DNA of 64,000 bases from an uncultured Candidatus Saccharibacteria bacterium. Lineage in GTDB: Bacteria > Patescibacteriota > Minisyncoccia > Phycocordibacterales > DATGWK01. The position numbers and the translations under genes were made by a program. The DNA lies in the NCBI GenBank assembly GCA_964428845.1, contig CAYRZH010000002.1, positions 6,924 through 70,923 on the forward strand, given 5' to 3'. The notes below the pieces were generated by a model that was not told where the DNA came from, did no database searches, and was given only the letters and a program-made list of their open reading frames with translations. Positions 4,766 to 22,695 of this stretch are shown in pieces. Each line of letters begins with the position of its first letter. Position 1 is the first letter of the stretch.

Positions 4766-4826
4766 AGTAATCGTAATGGTTCAATACCTTGGAAAATTTT
4801 AGAACTCTAGATGGGGGAAACGGCTA

Positions 4827-4876
4827 GGGGATTAAGTTATTTGAAATTTAGTTTTGTATAAAAGAAAGACCGCCCC
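4827..4876 (-). repeat. conserved ~50-bp inter-cassette repeat unit, copy B
   Basis: GGGGATTAAGTTATTTGAAATTTAGTTTTGTATAAAAGAAAGACCGCCCC. Confidence 0.6.
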
Positions 4877-4894
4877 GTGCACCAGGGCGGTCTT
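4868..4894 (-). terminator. intrinsic terminator for gene 4908-5315
   Basis: GACCGCCC cgtgcacca GGGCGGTC hairpin followed by a T-run on the minus strand. Confidence 0.7.
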
Positions 4895-4907
4895 GGTTCT
4901 TGTGGAG

Positions 4908-5315: not shown

Positions 5316-5510
5316 GGTTTTTCCTTTGTGGTTCGGGGTTTCCGACACAATTAAGAAAAAACCTAACCTAACACTGCATGGCCCCACTTGGGTTCGCCAT
5401 GATGTGCCACAACCTTTCTGGTGTTTACCCTAACATATCGATAGTTTTTTGTCAAATAGTGCTCTGACTCGTGGGCAAGTTCAGAATTCTTAATTGGGTA
5501 AATATAGAAA

Positions 5511-5555: not shown

Positions 5556-5590
5556 TTCCAACGAGTCTTGTGACTAATTGAGAGTGCGGG

Positions 5591-5836
5591 TCATTCTTGC
5601 GCCATTTTCAGAAGCACCCCTTTCGCCCCGTTGAGCACCCGTATCTGGGTTTCGACACACGGTTCTAACGATTGAGGGACTCCCCCTGACAAAAGTCGCT
5701 GCAGGGTATTGACGTTCTGGCAGAAAATACAAAGGCCTTGAAGGAACATGGCAACAGTCTCAGCCGTTGGCATTTCACCCCTCAGGATCTTCCTTTGTAA
5801 CCCAGCGGCGATAACCAGCATGTCTTCGTCATTCAA
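5591..5836 (-). CDS. hypothetical small protein (~77-81 aa); start uncertain (TTG at 5836 or ATG at 5821)
   Basis: GC-rich ORF co-oriented with the three cassettes; an AGGAGG lies about 30 nt upstream. Confidence 0.35.
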   Translation of the reverse strand: MNDEDMLVIAAGLQRKILRGEMPTAETVAMFLQGLCIFCQNVNTLQRLLSGGVPQSLEPCVETQIRVLNGAKGVLLKMAQE

Positions 5837-6062
5837 ATGTGCAGTTAAAGGTGTGATTTGAACACCTCCTTTCTGTGTGAAATACTATCACAATAAAGAA
5901 TATGTGTCAACTACGCTAATGGCTCCGCACATTTCATCTTTACCGAACTGTATAAAATCTATCCACTAGTTAAATCGAGTATGGAAAGAATGAGAAGGTT
6001 GAGTTTCTTTGATATATCAATGAAATTTTCACAAAGTGCACATGTTCGTTTTTAGCAAAGGA

Positions 6063-6093
6063 AAAGGGTTCGCATATTGCGAACCCTTTAAAA
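6063..6093. terminator. bidirectional intrinsic terminator
   Basis: AAAGGGTTCGCA tat TGCGAACCCTTT perfect hairpin flanked by A/T runs. Confidence 0.6.
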
Positions 6094-6675
6094 CTAACGA
6101 ACCCTACCGGTTGCTCTCCATTTTTTCCAGATTGGTAACCATTTTCCCCGAAACAATCCAAGGTGAATTACATCGTGGTACCTTCCATTCTTGAAGAAAT
6201 GCTTTTTCTTCCTGCCCTCGATCTCGTAGCCGCAGTGTAAGCTATAGGCAAGACTGCGCATATTATAGGCGAGTGCCTCTGAGCATATCCTGCGAAGATT
6301 AAGAACATTGAAGGCATAGTCGAGGAGAGTCATCTTGGCGTCTGTGCCAAATCCCTTGCCCCAATATTTCTTCTCTCCGATAAGTGTTCCAGTCGTGGCT
6401 ACTCTGTGTACCCACTCAATCTGATGGATGCCGATGACCCCAATGGGAATACCTTGTTTGGTCTCAATACAAAGAACGATATTCTTGTCATCAGAATCGA
6501 GCTTGTTTAGCCATTCTTCCTCCTGCTTCTCTGTATGAGGAAATGCGATAGAAACAAATTCTCTTATTTCCGGATCATTAATCCAACGTGTGATAATTGG
6601 TACATCAGCCCTAGTGAGTGGACGAAGATTTACTTTTCTACCAGAAAGGAAAACAACTCTCTGCTTGTTTGTCAT
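6094..6675 (-). CDS. GNAT-family N-acetyltransferase (RimJ/RimL-like)
   Basis: Acetyltransferase fold motifs (IGVIGIH..VATTGTLIGEKKYWGKGFGTDA); ATG at 6675 with a GGAGAAAAAA RBS. Confidence 0.7.
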   Translation of the reverse strand: MTNKQRVVFLSGRKVNLRPLTRADVPIITRWINDPEIREFVSIAFPHTEKQEEEWLNKLDSDDKNIVLCIETKQGIPIGVIGIHQIEWVHRVATTGTLIGEKKYWGKGFGTDAKMTLLDYAFNVLNLRRICSEALAYNMRSLAYSLHCGYEIEGRKKKHFFKNGRYHDVIHLGLFRGKWLPIWKKWRATGRVR

Positions 6676-6919
6676 TTTTTCTCCGATCGTTAAAGAACAA
6701 AAATGCCTCAGCGACATGCCGAGACAATTTATACAACCCAACTTTTAGTTCCTTTTAATTAGATAGAGATGCATAGATTGTCCCAGCAAAAATGCCCTTG
6801 CCGTCGGCAAAGGTATTAAGCACAATATTCATTTGGGAACATCTATGATTATTCATAGCCAAATAAAGATAGCAGGAAAATATTGTGGTGTCAAACTGGG
6901 CCCCGCGTTGTTGAGGATG

Positions 6920-7264
6920 TTAGAACCCATTTAGCCAGTATCTTTTGATTATCGGCAAAGATAGAGTAGAGAGAATGTAACCTAAAACTGGGACAAAGGC
7001 TTTTAGCCAAAAGTTGTTTTCATGAATCATTACGAGCCAAATAGCGGCGACAATGTATGTGATTATCGAAATCGTGAATCTTCGAACCCAACTTACTTCC
7101 CAAGCCTTGTCATTTTCTACACGATTGTTACGCTCTCTAATTGTCTTAAGCTCAGTTTCTATTTCTTGTGTATTCATGAAAGTAATAATAGCAAACATAA
7201 AAAGAAAACCACCGGATGAGTACCCGGCGGTCTTTTGAGTGGCGTTTTTAGGTAACCACTTCAC
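6920..7264 (-). CDS. hypothetical small membrane protein
   Basis: Three predicted TM segments; no family recognised. Confidence 0.4.
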   Translation of the reverse strand: MKWLPKNATQKTAGYSSGGFLFMFAIITFMNTQEIETELKTIRERNNRVENDKAWEVSWVRRFTISIITYIVAAIWLVMIHENNFWLKAFVPVLGYILSTLSLPIIKRYWLNGF

Positions 7265-9246: not shown

Positions 9247-10101
9247 TCACCTCACTCCCCGCAAGAAATCTTCATAAGACATTTCTTTCTTACCCTCCGG
9301 TATCACTTTAGTTATCTCCAACTTCCCATCCGACATCTCGGCTTCTCGCACCACTACGCGTAGCTTTTTGCCTTTATGATCCGCGAAAAAATATGCGGTC
9401 GGCCAGTCTCTGTACGCGCGGATTTTCTTTAAGTTTTCTTCGGCGTTGCCCAAAAGATCAAGCAACCCATCCTCTTTTTTGATCTTCTTTGTAAATGTGG
9501 CACGAGCGTGGTCCTGCTCCGTTGCTTTTATTTTCCCTTCTACCCAACCTGGAAGTATTTTTACTAGAAGTTTGCCACCTGCTTCTGCAAGAGTGTTTCG
9601 AAGTCGATCTGCGTACGGTGGCCAGTCCGAAATCGCTACTTCCTCCTGCACTACGATGGGCCCGTGATCCACTTTTTCGTCAACGAGCATTATTGTTACC
9701 CCTGTTTTTTCTTCATTTAAAATTGCTGACTGAATAGGTGTGGCGCCGCGAAGCTTGGGGAGAAGGGAAGGGTGAACATTTAAGGTGCCATGCTTGGGAA
9801 TATTTAAAATATTTTTAGGAATAATTTTACCGTACGATGCTACGATAAAAAGGTCGGCCGAGAGCGCTGTAAGTTTTTCAGAAAAATTCTTATCGTTAAG
9901 CTTTTCCGGCTGGAGGCACGCGATAGAGTGCTTTTCTGCCAACATCTTTACCGGAGAGGGAGTGATTACCAATTTTCTTCCTTGTGGTTTGTCTGGAGTT
10001 GTTACAATAAGCGTGGGTAAAAAGCCACCGGCCAGGAGTTTGTCCAAGACGCGACACGAAAACTCCGAACTGCCGAAAAAGACGAAGCCAATTTTACTCA
10101 T
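9247..10101 (-). CDS. fmt: methionyl-tRNA formyltransferase
   Basis: Formyltransferase N-domain motifs (HPSLLPKLRGATPIQSAI) and Fmt C-domain. Confidence 0.85.
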   Translation of the reverse strand: MSKIGFVFFGSSEFSCRVLDKLLAGGFLPTLIVTTPDKPQGRKLVITPSPVKMLAEKHSIACLQPEKLNDKNFSEKLTALSADLFIVASYGKIIPKNILNIPKHGTLNVHPSLLPKLRGATPIQSAILNEEKTGVTIMLVDEKVDHGPIVVQEEVAISDWPPYADRLRNTLAEAGGKLLVKILPGWVEGKIKATEQDHARATFTKKIKKEDGLLDLLGNAEENLKKIRAYRDWPTAYFFADHKGKKLRVVVREAEMSDGKLEITKVIPEGKKEMSYEDFLRGVR

Positions 10102-10606
10102 TTTTTATTGGCGGTATATCTTTTAAGTCCAGTGCTTTGTCGGTAAACAAAACTCCATCAAGATGATCTGTCTCGTGCTGAAATATTTGTGAAAGCAGGC
10201 CTGATGCCCCCATCTTAAATGGTTCGCCAGTCTCACTGTAAGCTTCTATCGTTGCCTGGGTTGAGCGTTTTACCTTGCCGTAGAGATATCTTACGCTCAA
10301 GCATCCCTCTTCCATCCATTCAGTTTTTTTGGAAAGTTTTGTGATCCGAGGGTTTATAAAGACAAGGTCCTCGGATCTTTTTTCTATATTTTTTATAAGG
10401 GAAAGAGTTCGGCCGGATACCACAAAGATACGTAATGCTTCACCTATCTGGGGTGCGGCAATAGCCACACCATCATCCTGCGATTCGAGCGCCTCTTTCA
10501 TCTTGCGGATTATGTTTTGCACTGGGACACTTTTTATCGAGGAAACCGGGACTTCTTGGGCTATTTTCCGCAACGTCGGGTTATCTCTGTCAACAATTTC
10601 TATCAT
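10094..10606 (-). CDS. def: peptide deformylase
   Basis: EGCLSV and HETDHLDG metal-binding motifs. Confidence 0.85.
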   Translation of the reverse strand: MIEIVDRDNPTLRKIAQEVPVSSIKSVPVQNIIRKMKEALESQDDGVAIAAPQIGEALRIFVVSGRTLSLIKNIEKRSEDLVFINPRITKLSKKTEWMEEGCLSVRYLYGKVKRSTQATIEAYSETGEPFKMGASGLLSQIFQHETDHLDGVLFTDKALDLKDIPPIKNE

Positions 10607-10628
10607 TTATTGATTATATCAAATGGTC

Positions 10629-12509
10629 TTAAAGGATGCTCTCGGGATCTATCGAAACATCAAACTGTGGTGGAAGTGAGCGCAACTTCTCTAGAAGCAG
10701 AGGTTCCACCCATCGATCTCTTCCTATTTTTATAAGAGCATGCATCGTATATTTCCCCTTCAGGTGCGGGGTGAATGCGGGGTAAACCTGAACCGAATAA
10801 TCTCCAAAGACGTGTGTAAGGTTTTCCATTTCTTCTTTTACTGCTTCTTCCCGGCCGGAGAGTGAAATTTTTATTAAAACTGTGAACGGTGGGTAGTCGA
10901 AAGCGCGCCTCTCTTCTATTTCTTCTTTGTAAAAATCAATGAGGTTTCCTCCCATAGCAAATCCCCAAATGCGACTCTCTGCGTTTCGTGTCTGTATAAG
11001 GACTTGTTTTTGGGCCAGTGACCTTATTTTCAATAAAATGTATAGCACTTTCTCATTTACTTTGAGATCCGGCATACCGAACATAGAGTCTATCGAAACT
11101 ACTGCTGTATTTGGGACCATCTCATCTATATAGGGCAAAGCCATTTCTGTTCCGAGAAGAACACTGCCGGTTGTTTCCAAGAATTTTTTAGCTTCTGCTG
11201 TGGCCTTGTTGTGAGTTTTTGTATTGTCAGCATCAATTCTGAAAAAATTAATATTCGGGAAGTCTTTCTTGAAATCTTCAGCTACTAACTCGGCACCTAT
11301 ACCAAGTGTTTTGAGTCTCCACCCGCCACAACCGAGACACTTCTGGTCAACGGCTCTTTTCTCACCGCATCTGTGGCAAAAAAGAAATCTCTCTGTCGGG
11401 GAAGAGTGGAGAGTAATAGGAGCCTTACAGCGTCGACATTCGACAACCCTACTACAATCGGCACAGAGGGTGAGAGGGGAGAGACCACGACGACTTGCAA
11501 AAAGAAACAGTCTTTCATTATTCTTTTTGGTGTTTTGGATTAATTCTTCTAATTCGGGAGAAAAAATTTTGAACAAACCGTCTTTCTTTTCTGCTTGGCG
11601 CATGTCTACGAGAGACTGCTTCGCACTTGTTATAGATCTAAATTTGAGCGGCGAGAGTTCTGCAAACTCATCGTGCTTGTATCTCCAAACCGTTTCGACT
11701 CGCAGTAGTGTGTCACCGCAAACCAGTCGCGCCCCGACCGCCCTGGCGAAGTACTCGGCGAAGATGCGCAGGTCGACATGTGGTCTGGTGGGGAGTTTGT
11801 AGAGTCGGGAACCTTCTCTCTCCACGATAATAGTGCCGAGGTCTTTGCGCGGCACAGACAAAAATCCTCCCGTTCCTATTATAAGCACGGGGTGATTTTC
11901 CTTTAGAAGCTTATTCCAAAGCATTACTACATCTTTCTTTTTTAGTTGATTGTGAAAAACAAAAGAGTAAGGACCGATGCCTTTCTCTAGATGAGTTTTT
12001 GCTCGTAGAACATCAGCAGATGTAGGCAAACACAAAAAAACCGAAGAATTCTTGGCAAACTCTTCCCGCACGATGCTCTTGTAGTGGGCAAATCTTTCTT
12101 CGTCGTCTGATTGGATGACAAGTCTGTGGTGTTTGTGCGGAATTTGTTCATTGTCTGGCTCGTCCAGATCCTCGGCGGCCTCAAGGATCTGCTTTGGAAT
12201 AATACTTTTGAGAACACTGCCAGTAGTGCTAGCGAAATATTCTGCGGTTATGCTGGCCGCCTCGATAAATTTGCTGGAAATAAACTTAGAAGAAACAAGT
12301 TTTTCAGCCTTCTTTATTGAAAACGAAAGTGCTTTCAAGTCAGCTTTTTTGTCTGCCAAATCTTCTATGCCGACGACAAGTGCATGCACACTTTTTCCTC
12401 GCAATGGTACTTTCATAATCGACCCGACGCTCGCGTCTGTGGAAGTAAAATATGTAAGAGTCTCTTTGGAAATCCCGCGACTAAAAGGTATGACGCTGAT
12501 TATCTTCAT
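10629..12509 (-). CDS. priA: primosomal protein N' (PriA helicase)
   Basis: DEAD-like helicase motifs plus the PriA Cys-rich zinc module (CADCSRVVECRRC...CHRCGEKRAVDQKCLGCGG). Confidence 0.85.
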   Translation of the reverse strand: MKIISVIPFSRGISKETLTYFTSTDASVGSIMKVPLRGKSVHALVVGIEDLADKKADLKALSFSIKKAEKLVSSKFISSKFIEAASITAEYFASTTGSVLKSIIPKQILEAAEDLDEPDNEQIPHKHHRLVIQSDDEERFAHYKSIVREEFAKNSSVFLCLPTSADVLRAKTHLEKGIGPYSFVFHNQLKKKDVVMLWNKLLKENHPVLIIGTGGFLSVPRKDLGTIIVEREGSRLYKLPTRPHVDLRIFAEYFARAVGARLVCGDTLLRVETVWRYKHDEFAELSPLKFRSITSAKQSLVDMRQAEKKDGLFKIFSPELEELIQNTKKNNERLFLFASRRGLSPLTLCADCSRVVECRRCKAPITLHSSPTERFLFCHRCGEKRAVDQKCLGCGGWRLKTLGIGAELVAEDFKKDFPNINFFRIDADNTKTHNKATAEAKKFLETTGSVLLGTEMALPYIDEMVPNTAVVSIDSMFGMPDLKVNEKVLYILLKIRSLAQKQVLIQTRNAESRIWGFAMGGNLIDFYKEEIEERRAFDYPPFTVLIKISLSGREEAVKEEMENLTHVFGDYSVQVYPAFTPHLKGKYTMHALIKIGRDRWVEPLLLEKLRSLPPQFDVSIDPESIL

Positions 12510-12512
12510 TAG

Positions 12513-12548
12513 CTTGAATAGTAATCTTAGAGAATATATTTTACAAAC
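12513..12548 (-). promoter_or_regulatory. sigma70-like promoter for priA
   Basis: Minus-sense TTGTAA - 17 nt - TACTAT immediately upstream of the priA ATG. Confidence 0.4.
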
Positions 12549-12550
12549 CT

Positions 12551-12670
12551 AAGACAAAATCCGCACAAGCTACCTCGCCTCGCACGGATATTTTTCTGCT
12601 GAAAAATTCCTCGTGCTCGCGCCGTCGCGCTCGCAAGGCTTCGTCTCGGTACTTGTGCGGATTTTGTCTT
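12551..12670. repeat. 120-bp element with 19-bp perfect terminal inverted repeats (AAGACAAAATCCGCACAAG / CTTGTGCGGATTTTGTCTT) around a GC-rich core
   Basis: Seen directly; the right arm overlaps the murA stop codon. It sits between murA and priA on the minus strand and may be a terminator structure or a MITE. Confidence 0.5.
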
Positions 12671-14180
12671 ATAAATCTCTCAATATCTGAATCTTTGCAC
12701 CAAGGCTATTGAGTCGCTTGATGATATCTTCGTAGCCACGATTGATACTGTAAATATTTCGTAGCACCGAGGTGCCCGAAGCCGCGAGCATACCGATAAG
12801 GATAATTGCGGCGGGGCGAAGGGCTGGCGGGCAAATGACCTCTGCCGCCTTGAGCTTTGTCGGACCGGTGATATAGATGCGATGTGGGTCGGCAAGTAGT
12901 GTGTCGGCGCCGAGTTTGTCGAGCTCTTTGTAGTGTATGGCGCGTTTCTCATAGACCCAGTCGTGTATAAAGGTGGTACCTTTGGCTTGGGTGGCGATCA
13001 CCGCGAAAAATGGAAGATTGTCTATGTTTAGTCCTGGATATGGTCGTGCCTCGATCTTTTCCTCGAGAGCCACGAGTTCGCTTGGTGATGTCTTGATATC
13101 TACTAGATTGGTACGTTCATTTAAGGCTTTATAACTTTTTATAATTTTATATTTAAAACCCATCTTCTCGAGTTTGAGCAGTTCGAGTTCTAGAAAATCA
13201 ATAGGACAGCGGCGAATGGTTATGCTCGACTTGGTCACTGCTGCCACGGCGATAAAAAACATGGACTCGATCGGATCCTCGCTCACATAATACGTGATCG
13301 GCTGGTCTATCACTTCTTTACCATGGATAGTTATTGTCGTTGTGCCTATACCTTCTATCTTCACGCCCAATTTTTCTAAAAAAAAGCAGACTTCTTGGCC
13401 CATGTAGTTGGCAGAAGCAAACTTGATGACAGTTTTTCCCGGGATCTTGGCGGCGGCGATGATGGTATTTTCGGTAACTGTGTCACCAGACTCGTAGAGC
13501 ACGATATAGTTGGGTTTGAGTGCATCTCTCTTCACCTCATAATGTTTGGAGGTGGTTTTTATATCCACCCCAAACTTTTCTAGGGCAAAAACATGAGGCT
13601 GTATAGTCCTAGAACCAAGTCTACACCCGCCAGCCTGGGGGAGTTTAAAACTTTTCGAGTTATGTATTAGGGAGCCGATAAGCATGATAATGCTTCTAGT
13701 TTTCTCTGCGGCTTCTGTGTTTATCTTTTTTATATCAATATTTTTAGGTGGTTTTATCTCGAGATCAGCACCACTCCATTTTGCCGATACGCCCATGCTC
13801 TCGAAGACCTCTATCATCCTGCGAACTTCTTCTATGCGAGGAACATTTTTTAAGATTGTTTTGTTTTTGTTTAAAAGGGAAGCGGCAAGAAGACCCATGG
13901 TGCCGTTTTTTGAAGTTTTTGTGACGATCTCGCCGGAAAGTTTTCTCCCGCCATCTATTTTTACATTTATTGCGCCACGAGAAATATTTAGAATATCCTT
14001 GTTCAACACAGAGCTGATCTTTGAGAGTGTCTCCGTGCTTAGGTTCTGCTCACCCTTCTCGATACGAGCAATGACACTTTGGGTTGTTCCGAGTGCTTTA
14101 CCAAACTCTTTCTGGGTGATACCACGCTCTTCTCGGAGGGTATGTATAAGTTTGCCGATATGTGCGAGCTGACTTTTCAT
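12669..14180 (-). CDS. murA: UDP-N-acetylglucosamine 1-carboxyvinyltransferase with an N-terminal XRE-type helix-turn-helix domain (HTH-MurA fusion)
   Basis: The N-terminal ~75 aa (LIHTLREERGITQKEFGKALGTTQSVIARIEKGEQNLSTETLSKISSVL) is an XRE HTH. It continues in one frame into a MurA N-terminus (KNGTMGLLAASLL..NVP) and a full MurA body. Confidence 0.8.
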   Translation of the reverse strand: MKSQLAHIGKLIHTLREERGITQKEFGKALGTTQSVIARIEKGEQNLSTETLSKISSVLNKDILNISRGAINVKIDGGRKLSGEIVTKTSKNGTMGLLAASLLNKNKTILKNVPRIEEVRRMIEVFESMGVSAKWSGADLEIKPPKNIDIKKINTEAAEKTRSIIMLIGSLIHNSKSFKLPQAGGCRLGSRTIQPHVFALEKFGVDIKTTSKHYEVKRDALKPNYIVLYESGDTVTENTIIAAAKIPGKTVIKFASANYMGQEVCFFLEKLGVKIEGIGTTTITIHGKEVIDQPITYYVSEDPIESMFFIAVAAVTKSSITIRRCPIDFLELELLKLEKMGFKYKIIKSYKALNERTNLVDIKTSPSELVALEEKIEARPYPGLNIDNLPFFAVIATQAKGTTFIHDWVYEKRAIHYKELDKLGADTLLADPHRIYITGPTKLKAAEVICPPALRPAAIILIGMLAASGTSVLRNIYSINRGYEDIIKRLNSLGAKIQILRDL

Positions 14181-14285
14181 ATTTAAAATCAGCATAGCAT
14201 ATATGATATGTTTTGTCTTGTCATTGATGATCTGAATTGTGGATAATGATAAGTAATCTTTTCTAGGCCAAACTTTTTTCATAAA

Positions 14286-14320
14286 AAATAGTTGTCAATT
14301 GAGTGGAATCAGAATATTAT
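14286..14320 (+). promoter_or_regulatory. sigma70-like promoter for mreB
   Basis: TTGTCA - 17 nt - TATTAT. Confidence 0.4.
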
Positions 14321-14340
14321 TGAGTTCGATCACTAAAAAT

Positions 14341-15354
14341 ATGGCTTTTTTACGCAAAAAATTGGGAATCGATCTCGGTACCACAAGCACACTGGTTTTT
14401 GTCCCGGGCAAAGGGGTTGTCTTAAATGAACCCTCCGTGGTAGCTGTTTCTGAAGAGGACAACAAGATCATGGCTATTGGTATCGAAGCCAAAAGCATGA
14501 TCGGTAAGACTCCAGAAAGTATTATTGCCTACAGACCCATGAAGGATGGAGTTATTGCTGACTATCGTGTCACCGAGGCCATGCTTCGGTATTATATAAA
14601 TAAAGCTTTGCCGAAATGGAACCTTACAAAACCCGAAGTCCTCATCTCTGTCCCTGCTGGTGTAACTTCCACAGAACGTCGCGCGGTCATCGAGGCGGCG
14701 ATCAAGGCGGGGGCCAAGAATGCTTATGTGGTAAAAGAACCCATCCTTGCGGCAATCGGAGCGGGAATTCCGATCCAGGAAGCAGTAGGGCATATGATAG
14801 TCGATATCGGTGGAGGTACCACTGACGTTGCAGTGATCTCGCTCGGGGGTATAGTAGCGGCCAAATCCGTAAAATGTGCTGGCAACAAGATCGACTACGC
14901 TATTGCCGACTATATCAAGAAGACATTCAATCTAGCGATCGGAGACAAAACTGCTGAAGATGTGAAGATTAAGATAGGTTCGGCTATTCCACTCGACGAA
15001 GAACTCTCGATCACCATCAAAGGTCGAGACTTTATTTCTGGTCTACCACGCTCGGTTGAGATAAAGACAAACGAGATCGTCAAAGCTATAGGTAGGGAAT
15101 TGCGGGAAATGGTCAAAGCTATAAAAGATGTCTTTCAGGATACTCCGCCAGAGCTTGCCTCGGACATTATTGATAGGGGAATAATAATGACCGGAGGATC
15201 CTCTCAACTTCGAAATCTCCCAGAACTTGTTTATCGAAGAACCGGTGTGAAGGCTATTCTTGCAGAAGATCCAATTTTTTGTGTTGTGAAAGGTACAGGA
15301 ATAGCCCTCGAGCACTTAGCTGTGTATAAGAAAAGCATTATCGCCAAAAGGTAG
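14341..15354 (+). CDS. mreB: rod shape-determining protein MreB (paralog 1)
   Basis: Actin-like ATPase motifs (LGIDLGTTST, DIGGGTTD). Confidence 0.85.
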   Translation: MAFLRKKLGIDLGTTSTLVFVPGKGVVLNEPSVVAVSEEDNKIMAIGIEAKSMIGKTPESIIAYRPMKDGVIADYRVTEAMLRYYINKALPKWNLTKPEVLISVPAGVTSTERRAVIEAAIKAGAKNAYVVKEPILAAIGAGIPIQEAVGHMIVDIGGGTTDVAVISLGGIVAAKSVKCAGNKIDYAIADYIKKTFNLAIGDKTAEDVKIKIGSAIPLDEELSITIKGRDFISGLPRSVEIKTNEIVKAIGRELREMVKAIKDVFQDTPPELASDIIDRGIIMTGGSSQLRNLPELVYRRTGVKAILAEDPIFCVVKGTGIALEHLAVYKKSIIAKR

Positions 15355-15410
15355 TTATTTTTTGGCTTTTTTGACGATTGTTAAAAAAAGATTTTTAATA
15401 TTGGATGTTG

Positions 15411-15438
15411 TTGACCTCTACTGAAATTGGAGTAATAT
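15411..15438 (+). promoter_or_regulatory. sigma70-like promoter of the unassigned RNA
   Basis: TTGACC - 16 nt - TAATAT. Confidence 0.45.
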
Positions 15439-15444
15439 TTCAAA

Positions 15445-15745
15445 CCAGGAGCGTGCATCAGACGAAAGAGCTTCCCGCAACGCGGCTCAATTGCCGCAAC
15501 AAACCCTGACCTCTTGCCAAAGGCTCGGCTACAAACCCACCGTCCCAACAGTGGGCGACAAGGGAGCGTAGTTTCCGCAAGGAAGGAACCCGTCGGGTTC
15601 TCGATCCGTTGTCGGGAGGAGATTCCGGCAATAGTCCGGAACGAACCCCCCCAAGGGTAAAGGGAAGAGTACTGGGGTCCGCTCAAAAAGACTCTGCCAC
15701 GCACGCAAACCTATCCCCCCGGCCATCACGGTTGGGGGGATTTTC
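15445..15745 (+). ncRNA. unassigned structured RNA candidate (~300 nt, GC-rich)
   Basis: About 58% GC in a ~40% GC genome, with no credible ORF on either strand. It is bracketed by a strong promoter and a CCCCCC..GGGGGG-Urich intrinsic terminator and contains a GNRA-capped helix (UUUCC GCAA GGAAG). Confidence 0.4.
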
Positions 15746-15749
15746 ATTT
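15715..15749 (+). terminator. intrinsic terminator of the unassigned RNA
   Basis: CCCCCC ggccatcacggtt GGGGGG followed by ATTTTCATTT. Confidence 0.6.
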
Positions 15750-15807
15750 ATTTGTTAGCCTTTTAGATTTATTCGATGGCGGGTGTTTTTAGTATAATGT
15801 TTGTATC

Positions 15808-16518
15808 GTGGAAACTTTAAAGAGAATCTATAGGGAAACATCCACTTTGCACCACGCCTGCCTTCTTTTGGGAGAAAGCGACTCACTTCTTAAAAAATTA
15901 GTTGATTTTCTAGAAGATGAAACCTCTTTTCGTTCTCGCGGCAATCCAGACTTCTTCCAAATTTCTCTCGATGTCTGCGGCATCGACGAAGCTCGCATGC
16001 TCAAAGATAGAGCTTTGATGAGGCCTATTGGGGATATCAAGATAGTGATTGTTTCCTTTAACTCTATAACCACTGAAGCCCAAAATTCTCTCTTGAAGAT
16101 TTTTGAAGAACCTTTGGGTCAGACCCATTTTTTTGTTATCGCTCCCAACAAAGAAATATTTCTCGATACGTTATTATCAAGATTTTTTGTTGTTGATGGT
16201 GAACTAGACGGCAGTACTGACAGAAGTAAAATGGATAGTGTAGCCGAATCATTCTTGAAGTCATCTCCAAAAGACAGGATCTCTCAAGTCGCTAGCATGA
16301 TAGAAAAAAAGGATAAAACTGAAGTCGTTCGGTTTCTAAACTCCCTCGAAGGTTTGATATCCAAAAGTCTAAAAAAAGATGGGCCATCAGAGAGTTTGGT
16401 AAACATTTCAGAAGAGATACTTCGTTCAAAGAGTTTCCTCTACGATCGTTCTCCATCACTCAAGATGATTCTCGAACATTTATCTTGTATTATACCTATA
16501 TCCAATAAATCCAAATGA
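15808..16518 (+). CDS. holB: DNA polymerase III delta-prime subunit-like (clamp-loader) protein
   Basis: AAA+ clamp-loader-like N-domain (HHACLLLGE, DEARML..IVSFNSITTEAQNSLLKIFEEP). Confidence 0.65.
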   Translation: METLKRIYRETSTLHHACLLLGESDSLLKKLVDFLEDETSFRSRGNPDFFQISLDVCGIDEARMLKDRALMRPIGDIKIVIVSFNSITTEAQNSLLKIFEEPLGQTHFFVIAPNKEIFLDTLLSRFFVVDGELDGSTDRSKMDSVAESFLKSSPKDRISQVASMIEKKDKTEVVRFLNSLEGLISKSLKKDGPSESLVNISEEILRSKSFLYDRSPSLKMILEHLSCIIPISNKSK

Positions 16519-17009
16519 CCCTAGCTACTCATATCGTTGTTGGTGCTGCAGGTGCAAAAATCTTTGCCACAAATCCAATCCAAGGTTTTATTATTGGTTG
16601 GTTGAGTCACTATATTCTTGATTTTATTATTCACTGGGACTATCCGTTGTCTGTCACAAAGACGAAGAAAGTTCAATTTCCAGAAGGTAATCCCTTTTTA
16701 AATAAAGAAATACTCATAGATGTCTCCAAGGTAATTGTCGATGCTCTTTTGGGTTTTATTATCGTCTATCTTTTTTTGCGAGATGGAGTCCAGTTCTTTA
16801 ACCCTATTCTTTTTGCCGGTGCCCTTGGTGGTACAATCCCAGACTTTCTCCAGTTTCTTTATGCGATACGCAATATAAAGTTAGTTGGGGTTTTCCAGAA
16901 ATTCCACAATTTTATGCATGCCCAGAGAGATTTTTCTACCAGACCAATACTCGGGATTTCTATCCAGCTCATTTTAATTTTCGTTATTCTAGTTCTGTTT
17001 AATGGTTAA
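16515..17009 (+). CDS. hypothetical membrane protein (possibly DUF457/YdjM-like membrane hydrolase)
   Basis: MTLATHIVVGAAGAK N-terminus and 4-5 TM helices; overlaps the holB stop. Confidence 0.4.
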   Translation: MTLATHIVVGAAGAKIFATNPIQGFIIGWLSHYILDFIIHWDYPLSVTKTKKVQFPEGNPFLNKEILIDVSKVIVDALLGFIIVYLFLRDGVQFFNPILFAGALGGTIPDFLQFLYAIRNIKLVGVFQKFHNFMHAQRDFSTRPILGISIQLILIFVILVLFNG

Positions 17010-18770: not shown

Positions 18771-18808
18771 CTGTTGTACTGCTAAGTATTAAAATTTTCT
18801 TGATAAAA

Positions 18809-18836
18809 AAACACCCGCTTCCATTTTGGAAGCGGG
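18809..18836 (-). terminator. intrinsic terminator for gene 18877-19476
   Basis: ACCCGCTTCC atttt GGAAGCGGGT hairpin followed by TTTTTTT on the minus strand. Confidence 0.65.
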
Positions 18837-18876
18837 TAACGTACTGGGTCGTGTGAACGTGGACATGGGCATAGTG

Positions 18877-19476
18877 CTACTTTCTACTGCGCCTCTTCTT
18901 CTTCGACTTCGTCGAGGTGTCCTTCCAGCCGAGCCGGCCGGTGACTTTGTAGAGATTGAGCGGGGCGCCCTTCTTGCCGTCGCGGGGTTGCTTGCCGACA
19001 ACGACGATGCCATCGAGCAGACGCGACAAGATGAGAGAAACATGGTTCGGCATAAACGCCACGGACATTCTCGACAGCTTATCGGTCACATCGTGGCGAG
19101 TGAAACGCTCCAGACCACGCATACTCTCGACTGCCTGGAGGACATGGGGCTTCAGGTCGGTCATGGACAGCTCGTTGCCGTTGCGTGGGGTGGCTCTGCG
19201 CCGGCGCCTCTTGGTCTTTGCCGGGAGCGAAGTCCTCGTTTTGGTCAGGACTGCCGGCGAAGAGTTTACCGAGTTCGCGTGCCCGGAAGACTTGCTGGAT
19301 GGGTTTGTTCCATCGAGCCGCGCGCTCACAAGCTCCAGGCCGAACGACGCACAGAGGCTATCGAAGATCCTCTGTAGCTCGGCCATGTGCCTCTGATACT
19401 TGTCCTCGTATTCCCGACATCGCCTCTCGAATTCAGCCACCAACGCCGCCTGCAGAGCCCGTCTCTTCATAGGCAT
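18877..19476 (-). CDS. hypothetical basic protein with C-terminal winged-helix-like region (199 aa), GC-rich
   Basis: ATG at 19476 preceded by AAGGAG; Arg/Lys-rich; the C-terminal segment LSRMSVAFMPNHVSLILSRLLDGIVVVG..KGAPLNLYKVTG resembles a wHTH; about 60% GC. Confidence 0.55.
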   Translation of the reverse strand: MPMKRRALQAALVAEFERRCREYEDKYQRHMAELQRIFDSLCASFGLELVSARLDGTNPSSKSSGHANSVNSSPAVLTKTRTSLPAKTKRRRRRATPRNGNELSMTDLKPHVLQAVESMRGLERFTRHDVTDKLSRMSVAFMPNHVSLILSRLLDGIVVVGKQPRDGKKGAPLNLYKVTGRLGWKDTSTKSKKKRRSRK

Positions 19477-19642
19477 ATACTTACTCCTTGCCGTTTTACG
19501 GCTTTATGCGGGCTTGGAACCCTGTTTACCTGTTACTAGATCTCCAAGGTCTAGCGACATCTGTCTACCAAAACCACCATTCTGGGGTGGATATTACACA
19601 CCCTGTACATTTTGTCAATACATGGTAATATCTGTCCCAGTG

Positions 19643-19675
19643 GGCCTGTAATGGTTACAGGCCATTTAATGGTTC
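19643..19675. promoter_or_regulatory. perfect palindrome GGCCTGTAA-TGG-TTACAGGCC plus a TAATGGTT direct repeat in the divergent control region
   Basis: Seen directly, between divergent genes 18877-19476(-) and 19713-20018(+). Confidence 0.45.
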
Positions 19676-19712
19676 TTTTACAAAGGAATTTAGAATCCAA
19701 GAAAGGGAAATA

Positions 19713-20018
19713 GTGCTCAAGCCACAAGTCAGAAGGGATTCTGACAACGGTTTCATAAAGGCCGTTGTTGGGAAAGTTCGTGATAATGGCAAAGGTGTAT
19801 TTGCAGTCGCCTACCTACAGAATGGTGAAACCCACCCAAATATTTCTGCTGGAGAAAGCATCACGTTTTCTCTAGACGATTGGGGGGGGAGGCTCCAACC
19901 GCGCGTTGGACAAGTTGTTCTGTTGGGGGATGTTCAGTGTTTTGCCAAGGGATGGCGTGCATTGTCTGCACGCCCCGTCACACTCGAGCCACAAGCCACA
20001 GCCACAAGAAAGGGGTAG
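19713..20018 (+). CDS. hypothetical protein (101 aa), first gene of the GHKL operon
   Basis: GTG at 19713 with an AAGGGA RBS; the C-terminus EPQATATRKG is encoded by the 30-bp direct repeat. Confidence 0.5.
   Translation: MLKPQVRRDSDNGFIKAVVGKVRDNGKGVFAVAYLQNGETHPNISAGESITFSLDDWGGRLQPRVGQVVLLGDVQCFAKGWRALSARPVTLEPQATATRKG
19984..20013 (+). repeat. 30-bp direct repeat DR1 (TCGAGCCACAAGCCACAGCCACAAGAAAGG)
   Basis: Identical copy at 20808-20837; each copy encodes a C-terminal EPQATATRK and supplies the RBS of the next gene. Confidence 0.8.
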
Positions 20019-20020
20019 TT

Positions 20021-20848
20021 ATGCAGAGGAAAGTCAACAGGGGTTCAACGGCAGAATGTCTCAAGGTTTTTTCGGACGAGAATCGCTTCAATGTTACCAA
20101 CATAGCGCGGTGTCGCGTTCGCAATCAAGTCTGTACGCTTCTTAGGATATCAGCCTCGACTGGTCATGCTTGGTTTGCCAGGCAGATTCTGCCGACTGGT
20201 GTAAACATGTTCAAGTTGCAACTTCTTCTCGAAGTTTGTGGCTTTGAAATCAAAGAGCGGCAGAATCTAACTCCTCTGTCTCGCGCTCTTGCTGATCAGG
20301 TGGCCCTGAATGTTCTTTCGGTTGGAAGAGCAGCCTCATTCATTGGGTCAGATGAAGACAAGATTGTCGCGCTCGCGTCTGGTCGTGAAGGAGCCAGTCC
20401 AGATCGGATCTCGAGAACGACCGAATTAGTAGAGATGGAAAAGCCGGCGGCGGAATCAAGAATGGAATTTTTCCGTCAGTCCCTGAAAAAGTTTGGCGTA
20501 GTTTTTGCACAGGAAGCACCTTCGCAGGAGACAGTTCGTGTCGACGCAGATATGCAAGTGCCTACGTCGACTTTGTCACCATCGGCACCACCCTTGGCGA
20601 GCGACACTGATCGGACGCATGCTGTTCATGCGCTCGCGCATCTAGTTTTGGGGATCAAGCACCTTGCCGCAAGAGTGGCCTCCGACGAGTTTACTCCAGC
20701 GGAAAGAGATATGCTTCGTCGTATGACAGGTAATGGCCTTTCCAATGCGATCTTCGATCTTTCGAACATCTTTCACCGCTTGTGCGGTGAGAGAGCTCGG
20801 AGTCGAATCGAGCCACAAGCCACAGCCACAAGAAAGGAGCCGTTGTGA
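20021..20848 (+). CDS. hypothetical protein (275 aa), second gene of the GHKL operon
   Basis: The ATG at 20021 is 2 nt after the gene-1 stop, with an AAAGGGG RBS; the C-terminus EPQATATRKEPL comes from DR2. Confidence 0.55.
   Translation: MQRKVNRGSTAECLKVFSDENRFNVTNIARCRVRNQVCTLLRISASTGHAWFARQILPTGVNMFKLQLLLEVCGFEIKERQNLTPLSRALADQVALNVLSVGRAASFIGSDEDKIVALASGREGASPDRISRTTELVEMEKPAAESRMEFFRQSLKKFGVVFAQEAPSQETVRVDADMQVPTSTLSPSAPPLASDTDRTHAVHALAHLVLGIKHLAARVASDEFTPAERDMLRRMTGNGLSNAIFDLSNIFHRLCGERARSRIEPQATATRKEPL
20808..20837 (+). repeat. 30-bp direct repeat DR2
   Basis: Identical to DR1. Confidence 0.8.
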
Positions 20849-22566
20849 GGAATTTCACACCGCCGTCTACTGCTGGCAGACACACCGCCATTAAGTTCAA
20901 TCAGGGCCAGGCCCTCTTGCATCTTGCTGGCATGTACCCGACTTTGCATGAGGTTATCCTCGAGCTTGTCCAAAACGCCCTAGACAAGGACGTGCGGGCA
21001 ACTCGGATCTGGATCGTTGTCAATCAAAAGACTCGGCACATCGCGGTGCGCGACAATGGTGCCGGAACAACGCTTGATAGATTCAACGAGGCACTTGCGT
21101 CAGTCGCGGAACCAGGCCGCAAGGGCGAGGGGAGTCTGGGACAGTTTGGTATCGGTCTCATTTCTCCTCTTGGTAAGTGTAAAGAGTTTGTTTTTCTCTC
21201 CTGCCCAGCACCTCATATGTACGGGTTCCAGGAGTGGACGTTTAGAACCGATCACATCACTGCGCAAAGACAGGATCTGATGATCCCTCTACGAGCTCGA
21301 GATGATCTCACGCTTCAGGATAGACCTCCTCCAGGAAAAACCCGGCTCCAGTGGCGATCGGAAATGAGCCTTACTGGTATCACGACTGATGGTGTCGTTG
21401 GTCAGATTTCCATGGACGCTCTTATCGGGGGTATTCAAGACCGCTATGCCACCGTTATGCGGCGTAACAAGACTATCATTTCGGTGGAGATCACCGACAA
21501 GGATGGTAGTGTCGAACGGCGGCCCAATGTGACGGCTTCAGACTTTCGAGGTCGTGCTCTCGAAGAGTGGACGTATGTAGAGCCCTCTGCTGGCAGGACC
21601 ACATTTCGTTTGTTTGTTGCTCCCAAGTCCAAAACGGGACGAAGCGGGCGGGTGGTTGTGGGAATCATGGGGAATGATTTCAGAATTCCACTCCACTATG
21701 TCGTCCGATCTGCGACCGCTCTTCTTGGCGAAGAAGTGGTTACGGCACTGTCGTCTGGTCTTTTCGAGGGAGAAATCATCTCTGAGTGTGCCAAACTGCA
21801 CCCAAGTCGCAGAAGTCTTGTCAAAGACGATGCTTTCATTGGCTTCTGTTTGGCTATCGAGGAGTGGTATAACCAAGTTGGGTCAAAGTGTGTTGATGAG
21901 ATTCGTCAGTCCCGACAGGAACAACGGTTCCAGGATCTGGGACTGCGATCGATGAAGGTGATCGAGGGTCTGCTCAATAATCCCGCGCTTTCATCGCTCC
22001 GGGCGGTTATCGGTTCTTTTGGCCGAGGCACGGTCAGTAGTGCTCACCATGACCCCACGAAGAAGGTCGTAGGTGAGCAGGAAAAGCCAGCCTTGTCGGT
22101 TCAGGGAGTCTTTGCCACGCCGAGTGGAGAAGACCCGGAAGATCCTGACGACGGCGGAGGATCTTCTGCCGAGAAGCCGCCTCGGCCGCCTCTCACTGTC
22201 ACAGGTCCTAGAGGTCCAAGACGGAAGATCGTGAGAAGCTCGAGCTTCGGCTTGCAGTTTGCTCATGAGCCAGTTGAGGGTTCTCCCGACTTGTGGAATC
22301 TTGACACAAGAGAGGGTGTACTGACCTTCAACATCCGGCATCCACTCTGGGTTGCCTGTGATGTGAGGGACGTTCCACTCATGAAACTGCAGGAGTGGGT
22401 GGCGATACAGGCGTTGACGCTTGAGATGATGCCTCCGGCCCTGCGCGTTCCACAACGGCTTATTTTGGATGAGATCACCGTTTCGATGGTTTCCTGGATT
22501 CTTGGTGCTGACAAAGCGAGGGGTTCTATCCCGAACCCGAAGGGTAAGAGGAGACCCTCGCAGTAA
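20845..22566 (+). CDS. GHKL/Bergerat-fold ATPase (HATPase_c_3; MORC/Hsp90/MutL-like N-domain) with a ~440-aa uncharacterised C-terminal region
   Basis: N-box ELVQNALDKD, G1 box VRDNGAGT and G2 box GSLGQFGIGLIS are present in canonical spacing. A GTG start overlaps the gene-2 stop (GTGA) and is preceded by AAAGGAG. Confidence 0.65.
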   Translation: MRNFTPPSTAGRHTAIKFNQGQALLHLAGMYPTLHEVILELVQNALDKDVRATRIWIVVNQKTRHIAVRDNGAGTTLDRFNEALASVAEPGRKGEGSLGQFGIGLISPLGKCKEFVFLSCPAPHMYGFQEWTFRTDHITAQRQDLMIPLRARDDLTLQDRPPPGKTRLQWRSEMSLTGITTDGVVGQISMDALIGGIQDRYATVMRRNKTIISVEITDKDGSVERRPNVTASDFRGRALEEWTYVEPSAGRTTFRLFVAPKSKTGRSGRVVVGIMGNDFRIPLHYVVRSATALLGEEVVTALSSGLFEGEIISECAKLHPSRRSLVKDDAFIGFCLAIEEWYNQVGSKCVDEIRQSRQEQRFQDLGLRSMKVIEGLLNNPALSSLRAVIGSFGRGTVSSAHHDPTKKVVGEQEKPALSVQGVFATPSGEDPEDPDDGGGSSAEKPPRPPLTVTGPRGPRRKIVRSSSFGLQFAHEPVEGSPDLWNLDTREGVLTFNIRHPLWVACDVRDVPLMKLQEWVAIQALTLEMMPPALRVPQRLILDEITVSMVSWILGADKARGSIPNPKGKRRPSQ

Positions 22567-22597
22567 GGCAGGTGGCTCACCAGAGACATCTGACCAC

Positions 22598-22628
22598 CCC
22601 GGTACTTGTGTGCCGGGGTTTTTTTATA
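22598..22628 (+). terminator. intrinsic terminator of the GHKL operon
   Basis: CCCCGGTAC ttgtgtg CCGGGG followed by TTTTTTTA. Confidence 0.7.
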
Positions 22629-22695
22629 CCAAATAAAACTTGGAATTTACTTTTTTGAAGTAGACCCGTGGCGTTTTTTTGTGTACTATTTCGAC

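Follow-up and report, generated by a model that had tools for sequence, protein, structure and literature searches.

A horizontally acquired cassette of Patescibacteria pairs a paraMORC-like GHL ATPase with a helix-turn-helix partner

Introduction

What does a 3.8-kb block of foreign DNA do in the chromosome of an ultra-small CPR/Patescibacteria bacterium, where it separates two housekeeping genes? The block occupies positions 18789-22630 of the 64-kb stretch of DNA that we analysed (the window). Patescibacteria make up a large part of bacterial diversity. The defence or conflict systems so far recognised in them are very few (PMC12366544). A first-pass annotation of the window had proposed that the block is an accessory island whose operon ends in a GHKL ATPase gene, and that it encodes an uncharacterised defence-type system. 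Among prokaryotes, MORC and paraMORC ATPases that carry private extensions at the C-terminus are tied to systems of restriction and defence (Iyer, Abhiman & Aravind 2008, PMC2292703), and a GHKL-Shedu fusion (Shedu type I-D VcSduA) defends Vibrio cholerae (PMC12137116).

Results

The first-pass annotation placed a GC-rich island of about 60% GC between housekeeping genes of about 40%. The island stood up to measurement but the figures did not, as the GC content was 0.530 for 18789-22630 and 0.439 for the remainder of the window (53% versus 44%). This excess is far beyond chance; the other 3.8-kb windows had a mean GC of 0.44 (sd 0.022) and a maximum of 0.49. Among the island genes a GC of about 0.59 was reached by div alone (GC3 0.76). 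The description of the flanking genes agreed with their domains: RseP is an M50 protease with a PDZ domain, and on the other side lies a class II aminoacyl-tRNA synthetase with an HGTP anticodon domain, whose predicted domains fit its earlier reading as ProS. The island breaks the host string holB-frr-rseP-proS-mreB between rseP and proS. This string is unbroken in related metagenomic contigs; about 45 of these carry both rseP and proS, the two genes abut in many of them, and the cassette was found in none.

Four open reading frames were confirmed in the island. On the minus strand, div (18877-19476) encodes 199 aa with a pI of 11.1. On the plus strand are g1 (19713-20018, GTG start, a basic protein of 101 aa), g2 (20021-20848, ATG start, 275 aa) and g3 (20845-22566, GTG start, 573 aa). 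All four have a basic pI, from 9.1 to 11.1. The tight coupling of the plus-strand genes was also borne out: the g1 TAG (20016-20018) lies 2 nt 5' of the g2 ATG, and the g2 stop and g3 start overlap as GTGA. A strong terminator had been noted for the operon, and there are in fact strong intrinsic terminators at both ends of the island. The predicted terminator of div forms the left edge (18812-18838, minus strand), with a 12-bp stem that has 7 GC pairs and leads into a T-run, and that of the operon forms the right edge (22596-22627, plus strand), with a 10-bp stem at 22596-22619 (7 GC pairs) and a T-run. A terminator like that of div (ATAAAAAAtACACCCGC...) closes the island of the closest homologue, L140, which lies elsewhere on the chromosome, and a terminator resembling that of the operon is found at the end of L140 and of a second locus, L141.

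The third protein had been called a GHKL (MORC/Hsp90-like) ATPase with a Bergerat-fold N-terminus. Our searches agreed and place it, as a stand-alone protein, in the MORC/MutL/Hsp90 (GHL) group. The motifs ELVQNALD, DNGAG and GQFGIG are present, and residues 33-119 match Pfam HATPase_c_3 (E 1.8e-9; 38.2 bits, cut-off 25). In an alignment of 41 g3 homologues, E40, N44, D47, D70, G72, G74, G99, G102 and G104 were invariant or at least 90% conserved. Judged by its N-box (ExxxNxxD), G1 (DxGxG) and G2 (GxxGxG) motifs, g3 is a member of the GHKL superfamily. The GHKL domain (about residues 1-140) is followed by an S5-fold transducer (about 141-320), and this order places g3 in the GHL subgroup. In this subgroup the S5 domain contributes a conserved basic residue to the ATP site; R322, a putative counterpart, is invariant in the family, as is a SGxFEGE motif in the S5 region. 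The earlier description of some 440 aa of unrecognisable sequence is superseded, the C-terminal stretch being now assignable to folds. Residues 329-377 form a long helix, and residues 393-573 (approximately) form a C-terminal domain that is exclusive to the g3 family and has an acidic disordered loop at 418-448. We looked in this domain for the HExxH motif of zincin metallopeptidases and found none; at its candidate histidine, H474, many homologues have Y, F or A. The domain most likely keeps the dimer together.

In structure comparison the best matches of g3 were MORC3 and MORC2, and MORC and MutL ranked above Hsp90. The S5 signature of MORC proper (GhXhhpXXRhl) fits no stretch of the family consensus; the nearest stretch is GxxGNDFRFPF, with the Arg out of register. 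The SF2 helicase, nuclease or methylase partners of the MORC/paraMORC restriction-type systems were absent from the gene maps of 48 loci and from a census of their flanks. The cassette ATPase is paraMORC-like in the broad sense of GHKL plus S5, a private C-terminal extension and a sporadic, mobile distribution.

The system was rightly regarded as uncharacterised, as Pfam, PADLOC, PHROGs and NCBIfam gave no system name for the cassette. The matches in PADLOC, NCBIfam and PHROGs were confined to the ATP-binding core of g3, about 70 aa. In PADLOC, residues 36-105 matched Tiamat TmtA (E 5e-5, profile length 1486), while g1, g2 and div had no matches there. The score against MzaB was 11 bits for a cut-off of 850. 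Full-length matches and companion genes of the known PADLOC 2.0 systems (Tiamat, MZA) are lacking. Neither a nuclease nor any other effector domain was found in the cassette proteins. Conventional identities of g3 were also compared. MutL models scored 20-22 bits (equivalog cut-offs 180-391) and there was no MutL C-terminal or endonuclease domain; HtpG/Hsp90 models scored 15-23 bits (cut-offs 371-455) with no Hsp90 middle-domain match; and GyrB, ParE and Topo VI-B models scored 10-11 bits (cut-offs 274-882) with no Toprim in the operon. For a sensor histidine kinase, a Pfam search for HisKA gave no match, and g3 has the S5 transducer.

The partner g2 begins with an XRE-type HTH and, after a variable linker, ends in a conserved helical domain of about 70 aa. 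A profile built from 20 homologues matched Pli0006 (3op9; E 6e-4) and the P22 C2 repressor (E 0.018), in both cases over positions 17-73. Individual members matched the Pfam families HTH_17, HTH_23 and HTH_3 (2 each) and HTH_31 (1); the HTH match of the window g2 on its own was below the Pfam threshold. On this profile evidence g2 is an XRE or Cro/CI type HTH protein, and the alignment alone suggests that there is probably a second, tandem HTH-like repeat. W51, R229 and R233 are invariant in the family. The g2 gene lies directly 5' of the ATPase gene in 43 of 48 clustered loci, nearly all of them labelled Patescibacteria.

The annotation had treated the four genes as one block. The core, a translationally coupled g2-g3 pair, is conserved, but g1 is found in only about one-third of the loci and div in a small subclade. 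The g1 family, which shares the motif SITFSL..W.G..P..GQVV.L....GWRA..ARPV, has 17 distinct loci, the window and 16 others. A second copy of g1 precedes div in L013 and L038, the copy ahead of div is the only one in L003, and L140 has an 84-aa g1-like ORF in this position. Searches of Pfam and PDB with g1 gave no match. The div protein has a helical N-terminal region, an RRRRR linker and a globular C-terminal part. Pfam and PDB sequence searches with div, which had been labelled winged-helix-like, were likewise without a match; jackhmmer found homologues in four loci (L003, L005, L013 and L038), and L140 encodes a resembling protein of 193 aa. We conclude that div is an accessory component confined to this subclade. 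Both g1 and div may be optional accessory binders of nucleic acid.

Predicted control elements occupy the region between div and g1. A sigma-70-like promoter for div, TTGACA-16-TAATAT (19591-19618, minus strand), was proposed from its consensus match only (10 of 12 positions), and a 16-nt inverted repeat (19582-19597/19625-19640) overlaps it. For g1-g2-g3, a putative extended -10 element, TGgTAATAT (19623-19631, plus strand), aligns with TGTGATATAAT in L140 and TGTGATATAGT in L005; a simple promoter scan did not call it. The palindrome of the earlier annotation is perfect. This candidate operator (19643-19663) reads GGCCTGTAA-TGG-TTACAGGCC, with 9+9 arms, and the aligned positions in L140 (AGCCAGGTA-TTG-TATCTGGTT) and L005 (GGCTGGATA-GTG-TATCCGGCC) are palindromes with altered arms. 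The cassette probably regulates itself through this conserved palindrome between the divergent promoters.

At least 49 loci of the family were found in 185,579 species genomes (the count is a minimum, since the search relied on one peptide pattern), and 352 clusters out of 1.84 billion belong to it. Its hosts are almost exclusively Patescibacteria (CPR), with rare occurrences on phage contigs. In the closest relatives (62-68% identity) the same cassette is found elsewhere on the chromosome, and the whole island, terminators included, travels as a unit. The GC content of g2 plus g3 exceeded that of the flanks in 32 of 40 loci (mean +6.6 points). Occurrence at differing sites, together with the position of the island in a conserved housekeeping string, upheld the proposal of an accessory insertion. 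We conclude that the cassette is horizontally acquired and self-contained. L003 and L014 share a cassette position, as do L005 and L038, so that the cassette can also be a long-term resident.

Discussion

The g2-g3 cassette is an uncharacterised family in which a paraMORC-like ATPase is paired with an HTH protein. As the best explanation of its function, with a probability of roughly 0.4, we propose that this mobile, self-regulated cassette uses an HTH-recruited GHL ATPase to interfere with invading or competing DNA. The HTH region of g2 would bind DNA, and its conserved C-terminal domain would recruit g3. ATP binding would shut the N-terminal gate of g3, as in MORC, MutL and Hsp90, and the g3 dimer would clamp, compact or otherwise handle the bound DNA. 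The result would be a block on a phage, plasmid or other mobile element, without an obvious nuclease.

By analogy, the cassette may plausibly act in defence or against MGEs. Like the prokaryotic MORC and paraMORC proteins, g3 has GHKL and S5 domains with intact ATP motifs, a private extension past S5 and a sporadic, laterally mobile distribution; it differs from them in its HTH partner, in its Patescibacteria hosts and in that no gene for an SF2 helicase, nuclease or methylase lies beside it. The only matches of g3 in the defence library were GHKL-containing anti-phage or restriction proteins. With Tiamat TmtA, MZA MzaB, VcSduA and the BbrUII/HgiDII-type enzymes it shares an N-terminal Bergerat ATPase, which in those proteins serves a conflict system. 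However, the match covers about 70 residues of profiles of 480-1650 positions at E 5e-5 or worse, size and partners differ, and the cassette is without DUF4263/PD-(D/E)xK or any other effector. With the eukaryotic MORC and SMCHD1 proteins sequence identity is only 13-14%; the cassette lacks their CW, chromo and SMC-hinge domains, and its DNA targeting would fall to the separate HTH protein. MutL differs in context, since the cassette is an accessory island without mutS or mutH. Several points speak against a conflict role: no effector was found, the PADLOC match is limited to the core, restriction partners are absent, some positions are shared, and the neighbours are housekeeping genes. In a Pfam census of 150 genes flanking homologues, with 10 neighbours scanned singly, only housekeeping functions and no defence islands were found (GroEL, DnaE, RNase R, ClpB and AlaRS were among them).

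Alternatively, the cassette could be a selfish module intrinsic to a mobile element, a remnant or minimal phage or plasmid function in which g2 regulates in the manner of CI/Cro and g3 works for the element, not for the host. Candidate roles are repressor-controlled maintenance, exclusion or genome handling, with g3 acting in compaction, partition or addiction. The XRE/P22 C2-like HTH of g2 fits such a module, and the divergent promoters with their conserved palindrome recall a genetic switch. The composition is foreign in cellular genomes, and the island moves as a unit with its terminators. Two viral contigs also carry the g2-g3 pair, each at the GC of the contig: one is a 354-kb IMG/VR contig, where the adjoining genes encode ThyX, dUTPase, RNase H and radical-SAM proteins, and the other is 32 kb long. 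These two were, however, the only full-length matches among 2.9 million viral contigs, and there was none in GenBank phages. Neither the island nor its immediate surroundings hold an integrase, replication, partition or structural gene, no target-site duplication was seen when we looked for one, and tRNA genes adjoin the g2-g3 module in only 3 of 55 loci. Phage T4 rIIA/rIIB offers a parallel in its GHL-type ATPase, variable C-terminal region and smaller adjoining partner gene, and many rIIA models matched g3 in a Foldseek search of BFVD (E 1e-12 to 1e-9). The TM-scores with the rIIA models were only 0.32-0.36, for the N-terminal half only; the cassette partner is a soluble HTH protein, unlike that of rIIA, and the PHROGs search gave no rIIA match. 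We regard a selfish module as possible but on the unlikely side.

A sharper form of the conflict reading appears doubtful to us. Patescibacteria and their phages would then share a new kind of MORC-type system for immunity or silencing that does without a nuclease. Its sequence-reading HTH adaptor would load an ATP-gated GHL clamp onto foreign DNA and so silence it, and a cis-acting GCCACAA element of its own (described below) would tune how much of each subunit is made and perhaps be read by g1.

We think it improbable that the cassette serves the host cell, be it as a lineage-specific nucleoid organiser or transcription silencer or as an Hsp90-like chaperone beside an HTH regulator. The housekeeping neighbourhoods and the position common to some divergent genomes would suit such a role. 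The family is nevertheless very rare and patchy, it is missing from relatives with the same synteny, its GC is foreign, and MORC and MutL outscore Hsp90, and the HtpG models stay far below their cut-offs. A conventional identity for g3 (MutL, HtpG, GyrB/TopoVI-B or sensor histidine kinase), with an ordinary operon and metabolic partners, is the outcome that the first-pass annotation had set against its own proposal. It is effectively refuted. Only the Bergerat core favours it (profile match to MutL N-terminal domains, E ~2e-8 over 55 residues). Against it stand NCBIfam scores of 10-23 bits for cut-offs of 180-880, a Pfam search without a MutL_C, Toprim, HisKA or Hsp90 middle-domain match, the structure matches, the exclusive C-terminal domain, the HTH and small basic partners and the accessory context.

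The proposed interference cassette is compact, with two core genes and sharp edges in a clonable 3.8-kb block that has its own promoters and terminators. It joins the ATPase engine of MORC, SMCHD1 and MutL to a separate HTH adaptor, with no nuclease visible. Should it act on foreign DNA, it would represent a further defence family, one peculiar to CPR bacteria and their phages, and a minimal bacterial model of DNA silencing by MORC-type clamps; if the silencing reading is true, it would be a prokaryotic counterpart of eukaryotic transposon silencing by MORC and SMCHD1. If it does not act on foreign DNA, it is still a coherent family of proteins, at least 352 clusters strong, whose C-terminal domain is private to it.

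The translation-initiation region of the operon is duplicated, which is unusual. An element with GCCACAA repeats and a Shine-Dalgarno sequence precedes g2 (19984-20023, plus strand) and recurs before g3 (20808-20847, plus strand) as a 40-nt direct repeat that is 90% identical. This CA-rich initiation element may set the g2:g3 ratio. The copy ahead of g2 is less structured than shuffled sequence. Exact AGCCACAAG occurs five times in the window, each time inside the cassette operon, and the same initiation motif lies ahead of g2 and g3 alike in L140, L141 and L001.

A GC-rich four-gene cassette between rseP and proS

The block at 18789-22630 is a mobile, compositionally foreign cassette, and its core couples a helix-turn-helix (HTH) protein to a GHL ATPase of the MORC/MutL type that appears to be active. 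An ORF scan placed all four genes at the coordinates proposed in the first-pass annotation: a divergent basic gene, div (18877-19476, minus strand, 199 aa), and on the plus strand a small basic gene, g1 (19713-20018, GTG start, 101 aa), the HTH partner, g2 (20021-20848, 275 aa), and the ATPase gene, g3 (20845-22566, GTG start, 573 aa). The tight coupling described there was also borne out, as g1 stops 2 nt ahead of the g2 ATG and the g2 stop and g3 start overlap as GTGA. The GC contrast had been put at about 60% against about 40%; this was an overstatement, but the island is real. GC is 53.0% in the block and 43.9% in the remainder of the window, div is the block's sole part at 59%, and 3.8-kb windows elsewhere average 44% (sd 2.2) and never exceed 49%.

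Strong intrinsic terminators lie on the left (18812-18838, minus strand) and right (22596-22619, plus strand) sides of the island. HolB, RRF and an M50/PDZ protease (RseP) are encoded on its left flank, and a class II aminoacyl-tRNA synthetase (ProS-like) and MreB on its right. Transposon-like ends were rejected: the lone terminal inverted similarity (18803-18818 and 22612-22627) consists of the two terminators themselves. No target-site duplication was found.

With the ProS protein as query we retrieved 80 related metagenomic loci, about 45 of which also contain rseP. The order holB-frr-rseP-proS-mreB was visible in roughly two dozen of these 45, the rseP-proS spacing was 30-150 bp in many, and none carried g2 or g3. 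The cassette has thus been inserted into an otherwise conserved run of housekeeping genes. A few relatives have a rseP-proS gap of 1-1.8 kb that contains other, unrelated genes (L066 5225-7001, L098 5677-7001, L063 2151-3166 and L133 4908-5927); the L066 gap contains a 506-aa minus-strand ORF with a GC content of 0.59, compared with 0.51 for the locus. The site thus tolerates insertions, and seems to take them repeatedly.

Two other parts of the window were recorded. A second GC-elevated patch (3041-5387, minus strand; 0.56 in 3001-4000) carries three hypothetical ORFs of 336, 129 and 159 aa adjoining a membrane thioredoxin-like protein, and may be another foreign insert. Between holB and frr, a hydrophobic 164-aa ORF (16515-17009) overlaps the holB stop as ATGA; it had no Pfam match, and syntenic relatives were negative by tblastn.

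Distribution and mobility of the cassette

Among 185,579 species-level genomes we found 49 loci, a lower bound because a single peptide pattern was scanned. Nearly all were labelled Patescibacteria (Paceibacteria or Saccharimonadia); the few other labels were all on short MAG contigs. The flanking genes were nearly always different and of the housekeeping kind (GroEL, DnaE, RNase R, ClpB, AlaRS, S16, UDG). A defence-island context was rejected after 150 neighbouring genes had been screened with Pfam and PADLOC: the screen returned housekeeping genes and a few generic ATPase matches. The PADLOC matches were few in number and look generic, such as DolB beside neighbours called ClpB by Pfam.

The closest g3 relatives (62-68% identity) have the identical div/g1/g2/g3 layout at different chromosomal sites, beside LeuRS/DUF5671, beside Ddl/TrmB or close to an IS200-type transposase. 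In L140, the closest homologous island, GC steps from about 0.40 to about 0.55 exactly between two terminators resembling those of the window. The island moves as one unit that includes its terminators. Across the loci with enough flank, g2 and g3 were GC-richer than their surroundings in 32 of 40, by a mean of 6.6 points, and GC3 of the ATPase gene rose to 0.7-0.9 where neighbours had 0.45-0.6. Acquired islands usually show the reverse, an AT-rich bias. In some divergent genomes the cassette is at a common position (L003 with L014, L005 with L038), and its GC excess in L003/L014 is small, as would fit old, ameliorated acquisitions. No integrase was found at the cassette loci. Integration targeted to tRNA genes was rejected as a general rule, as tRNA genes adjoin the module in 3 of 55 loci alone (L009, L032 and L141).

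g3 is a GHL ATPase with a family-specific C-terminal domain

Pfam matched g3 with HATPase_c_3 and HATPase_c alone (residues 33-119), and NCBIfam with a sacsin-type ATP-binding domain, MutL, HtpG, GyrB and TopoVI-B models falling far under their cut-offs. PHROGs gave nothing informative. The structural matches were MORC3 (19.7; 283), the MutL N-terminal domain (18.7; 271), MORC2 (18.7; 299) and SMCHD1 (18.6; 312), followed by PMS1, ParE, Top6B and GRP94 (14.8-15.7; 259-329). From these matches, residues ~1-320 form a GHKL domain plus S5 transducer, that is, a GHL module. In the family alignment the ATP-binding residues do not vary, which makes an active enzyme probable.

A homology search with g3 returned 88 full-length relatives of 550-600 aa; those with a named source were all Paceibacterota or Sungbacteria MAGs. 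We searched the C-terminal half with phmmer against 1.84 billion cluster representatives and, at E<=1e-3, obtained 352 proteins; of the 150 matches listed, the near-full-length ones had the same length and architecture as g3. This C-terminal domain is private to the g3 family.

A conserved HTH partner and lineage-specific basic proteins

The first-pass annotation had suggested looking for a conserved gene neighbourhood; of 48 loci, 43 have a g2-like gene immediately 5' of the ATPase gene. Built from 20 g2 homologues, a profile matched XRE-type repressors in the PDB (Pli0006, E 6e-4; P22 C2, E 0.018), and individual members match HTH_3, HTH_17, HTH_23 and HTH_31. Downstream we read, from the alignment, a putative second HTH-like repeat, a variable linker and a well-conserved, apparently helical C-terminal domain of ~70 aa with the motif LAxL..A..PLA...SD.FT..R..LR.L.G...F.LSN.LNRLCGERAR. 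Searches for g2 homologues in a 5.8-billion-protein index recovered g2 itself and three partial sequences, and nothing else.

The g1 product is a basic protein of ~90 aa (pI 9.9) with the motif SITFSL..W.G..P..GQVV.L....GWRA..ARPV; its family is present in 16 further distinct loci, and neither g1 nor its profile matched anything in Pfam or among PDB sequences. Directly upstream of div, on the opposite strand to the operon, L013 (6487-6759) and L038 (6401-6703) carry a second, divergent paralogue of g1, L140 has a similar 84-aa ORF (2138-2392), and L003 has its lone g1 copy (6667-6951), all on the minus strand. In such islands a small g1-type protein thus heads each transcription unit. The div protein (pI 11.1), putatively winged-helix-like in the first-pass annotation, is helical in its N-terminal part and has an RRRRR linker. 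It had no database match, its profile found nothing among PDB sequences, and jackhmmer recovered homologues in 4 loci; L140 also encodes a 193-aa protein that resembles it.

Four loci of a Saccharimonadia subclade encode an unrelated protein of ~405 aa immediately 5' of g2 (L030 5902-7113, L031 1756-3051, L033 5912-7147 and L035 215-1441). It had no Pfam match; we read it as an N-terminal domain joined by an acidic linker to a wHTH-like middle and a C-terminal coiled coil. Given the wHTH-like middle and coiled coil, it may play a role similar to that of div and be its analogue. As g2 accompanies the ATPase in most loci and g1 and div are patchy, the conserved system is g2 plus g3, with lineage-specific basic accessory proteins.

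In L001, a related locus, the divergent gene (5570-6673, minus strand) encodes an unrelated 367-aa protein with no Pfam match, whose motifs ERPLRDGHV and NGQHT are reminiscent of a ParB/DGQHR domain. The region downstream (9813-16945), with GIY-YIG, reverse-transcriptase (RVT_1) and PLD-nuclease-like genes, looks rich in mobile elements.

Possible role of the cassette

We propose that g2 would target DNA and recruit g3, that ATP would close the g3 dimer on DNA and so clamp or compact it, and that the biological role would be interference with foreign or competing DNA. We give DNA targeting by g2, an ATP-gated g3 clamp and interference with foreign DNA, taken jointly, a probability of roughly 40%. 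The cassette would work most like the paraMORC-type GHL ATPases associated with restriction systems by Iyer et al. (PMC2292703). It is without the helicase, nuclease and methylase neighbourhood of those systems. The engine is common to eukaryotic MORC and SMCHD1; by inspection, g3 fails the S5 signature of MORC. Its similarity to the GHKL defence proteins Tiamat, MzaB and VcSduA-type Shedu is confined to the ATP-binding core; the PADLOC comparison that the first-pass annotation had recommended gave a lone match of 70 residues, to Tiamat TmtA. Of the defence-type system suggested there, the accessory mobile block stands, but the neighbours are housekeeping genes, the PADLOC match covers the ATP-binding core alone, and the role is drawn by analogy. 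The partner, the C-terminal domain and the host range are new for a conflict-type cassette with a GHL ATPase, which is not categorically new. The cassette, for which the role above is a proposed one, is well defined and clonable, and few defences are known from the lineage that carries it.

A less probable explanation is a regulatory, maintenance or exclusion module intrinsic to mobile elements. A scan of IMG/VR gave two full-length matches. One is a g2-g3 pair (L054, 9274-11638) on a 354-kb contig, probably of a huge phage, with radical-SAM, RNase H, ThyX, dUTPase, methyltransferase and beta-helix genes as neighbours; the other, on a 32-kb viral contig (L055, 9872-12422), has the order reversed, g3 then g2. 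On both contigs the GC of g2 and g3 equals that of the contig. GenBank phages gave no match, PLSDB plasmids matched the N-terminal ATP-binding core alone, in rhizobial 'ATP-binding proteins', and a Foldseek comparison with BFVD yielded generic GHL proteins, many rIIA models among them, at TM 0.3-0.4. A host nucleoid or chaperone function is more doubtful still. The remaining probability falls to functions outside those listed. A conventional MutL, HtpG, GyrB or histidine kinase is effectively refuted, g3 failing all the curated models of MutL, Hsp90 and topoisomerases.

A divergent control region and repeated junction elements

The 236-bp divergent control region has a minus-strand promoter-like site, TTGACA-16-TAATAT, overlain by a 16-nt inverted repeat. 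A perfect 9+9 palindrome (19643-19663) lies 3' of an inferred extended -10 element, and is kept at the equal aligned position in L140 (about 2570-2590) and L005 (about 7110-7130). The arms are GGCCTGTAA/TTACAGGCC in the window, AGCCAGGTA/TATCTGGTT in L140 and GGCTGGATA/TATCCGGCC in L005, changed yet palindromic. The palindrome would suit a candidate operator bound by an island-encoded dimeric HTH protein, and its changing arms suggest an operator co-evolving with its binding protein.

A 40-nt sequence (TCGAGCCACAAGCCACAGCCACAAGAAAGGrG) stands directly before the g2 and g3 starts (19984-20023 and 20808-20847, plus strand) with 90% identity, and exact AGCCACAAG occurs in 5 copies in the 64-kb window, all in the operon and on the coding strand. 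The GCCACAA-repeat element was also noted at 19720-19728. The element AGCCACAAGCCACAAGAAAGGA also precedes g2 and g3 in L140 (2915-2950 and 3698-3730), L141 and L001, at both positions though the island proteins are just 54-68% identical. Its second copy is intergenic there; in the window it has been absorbed into g2, which gives g1 and g2 an identical C-terminal peptide, EPQATATRK. A significant repeat is common to both junctions in 11 of the 16 islands that have g1, its sequence dependent on the clade. We rejected the idea that the island or its repeats form a structured RNA: Rfam gave no match at E<=1, and the repeats fold worse than shuffled sequence. We read the 40-nt repeat as a duplicated CA-rich/SD translation-initiation cassette, equalising or co-regulating g2 and g3; that g1 might bind the repeat (AGCCACAAGCCACAAG) is speculation.
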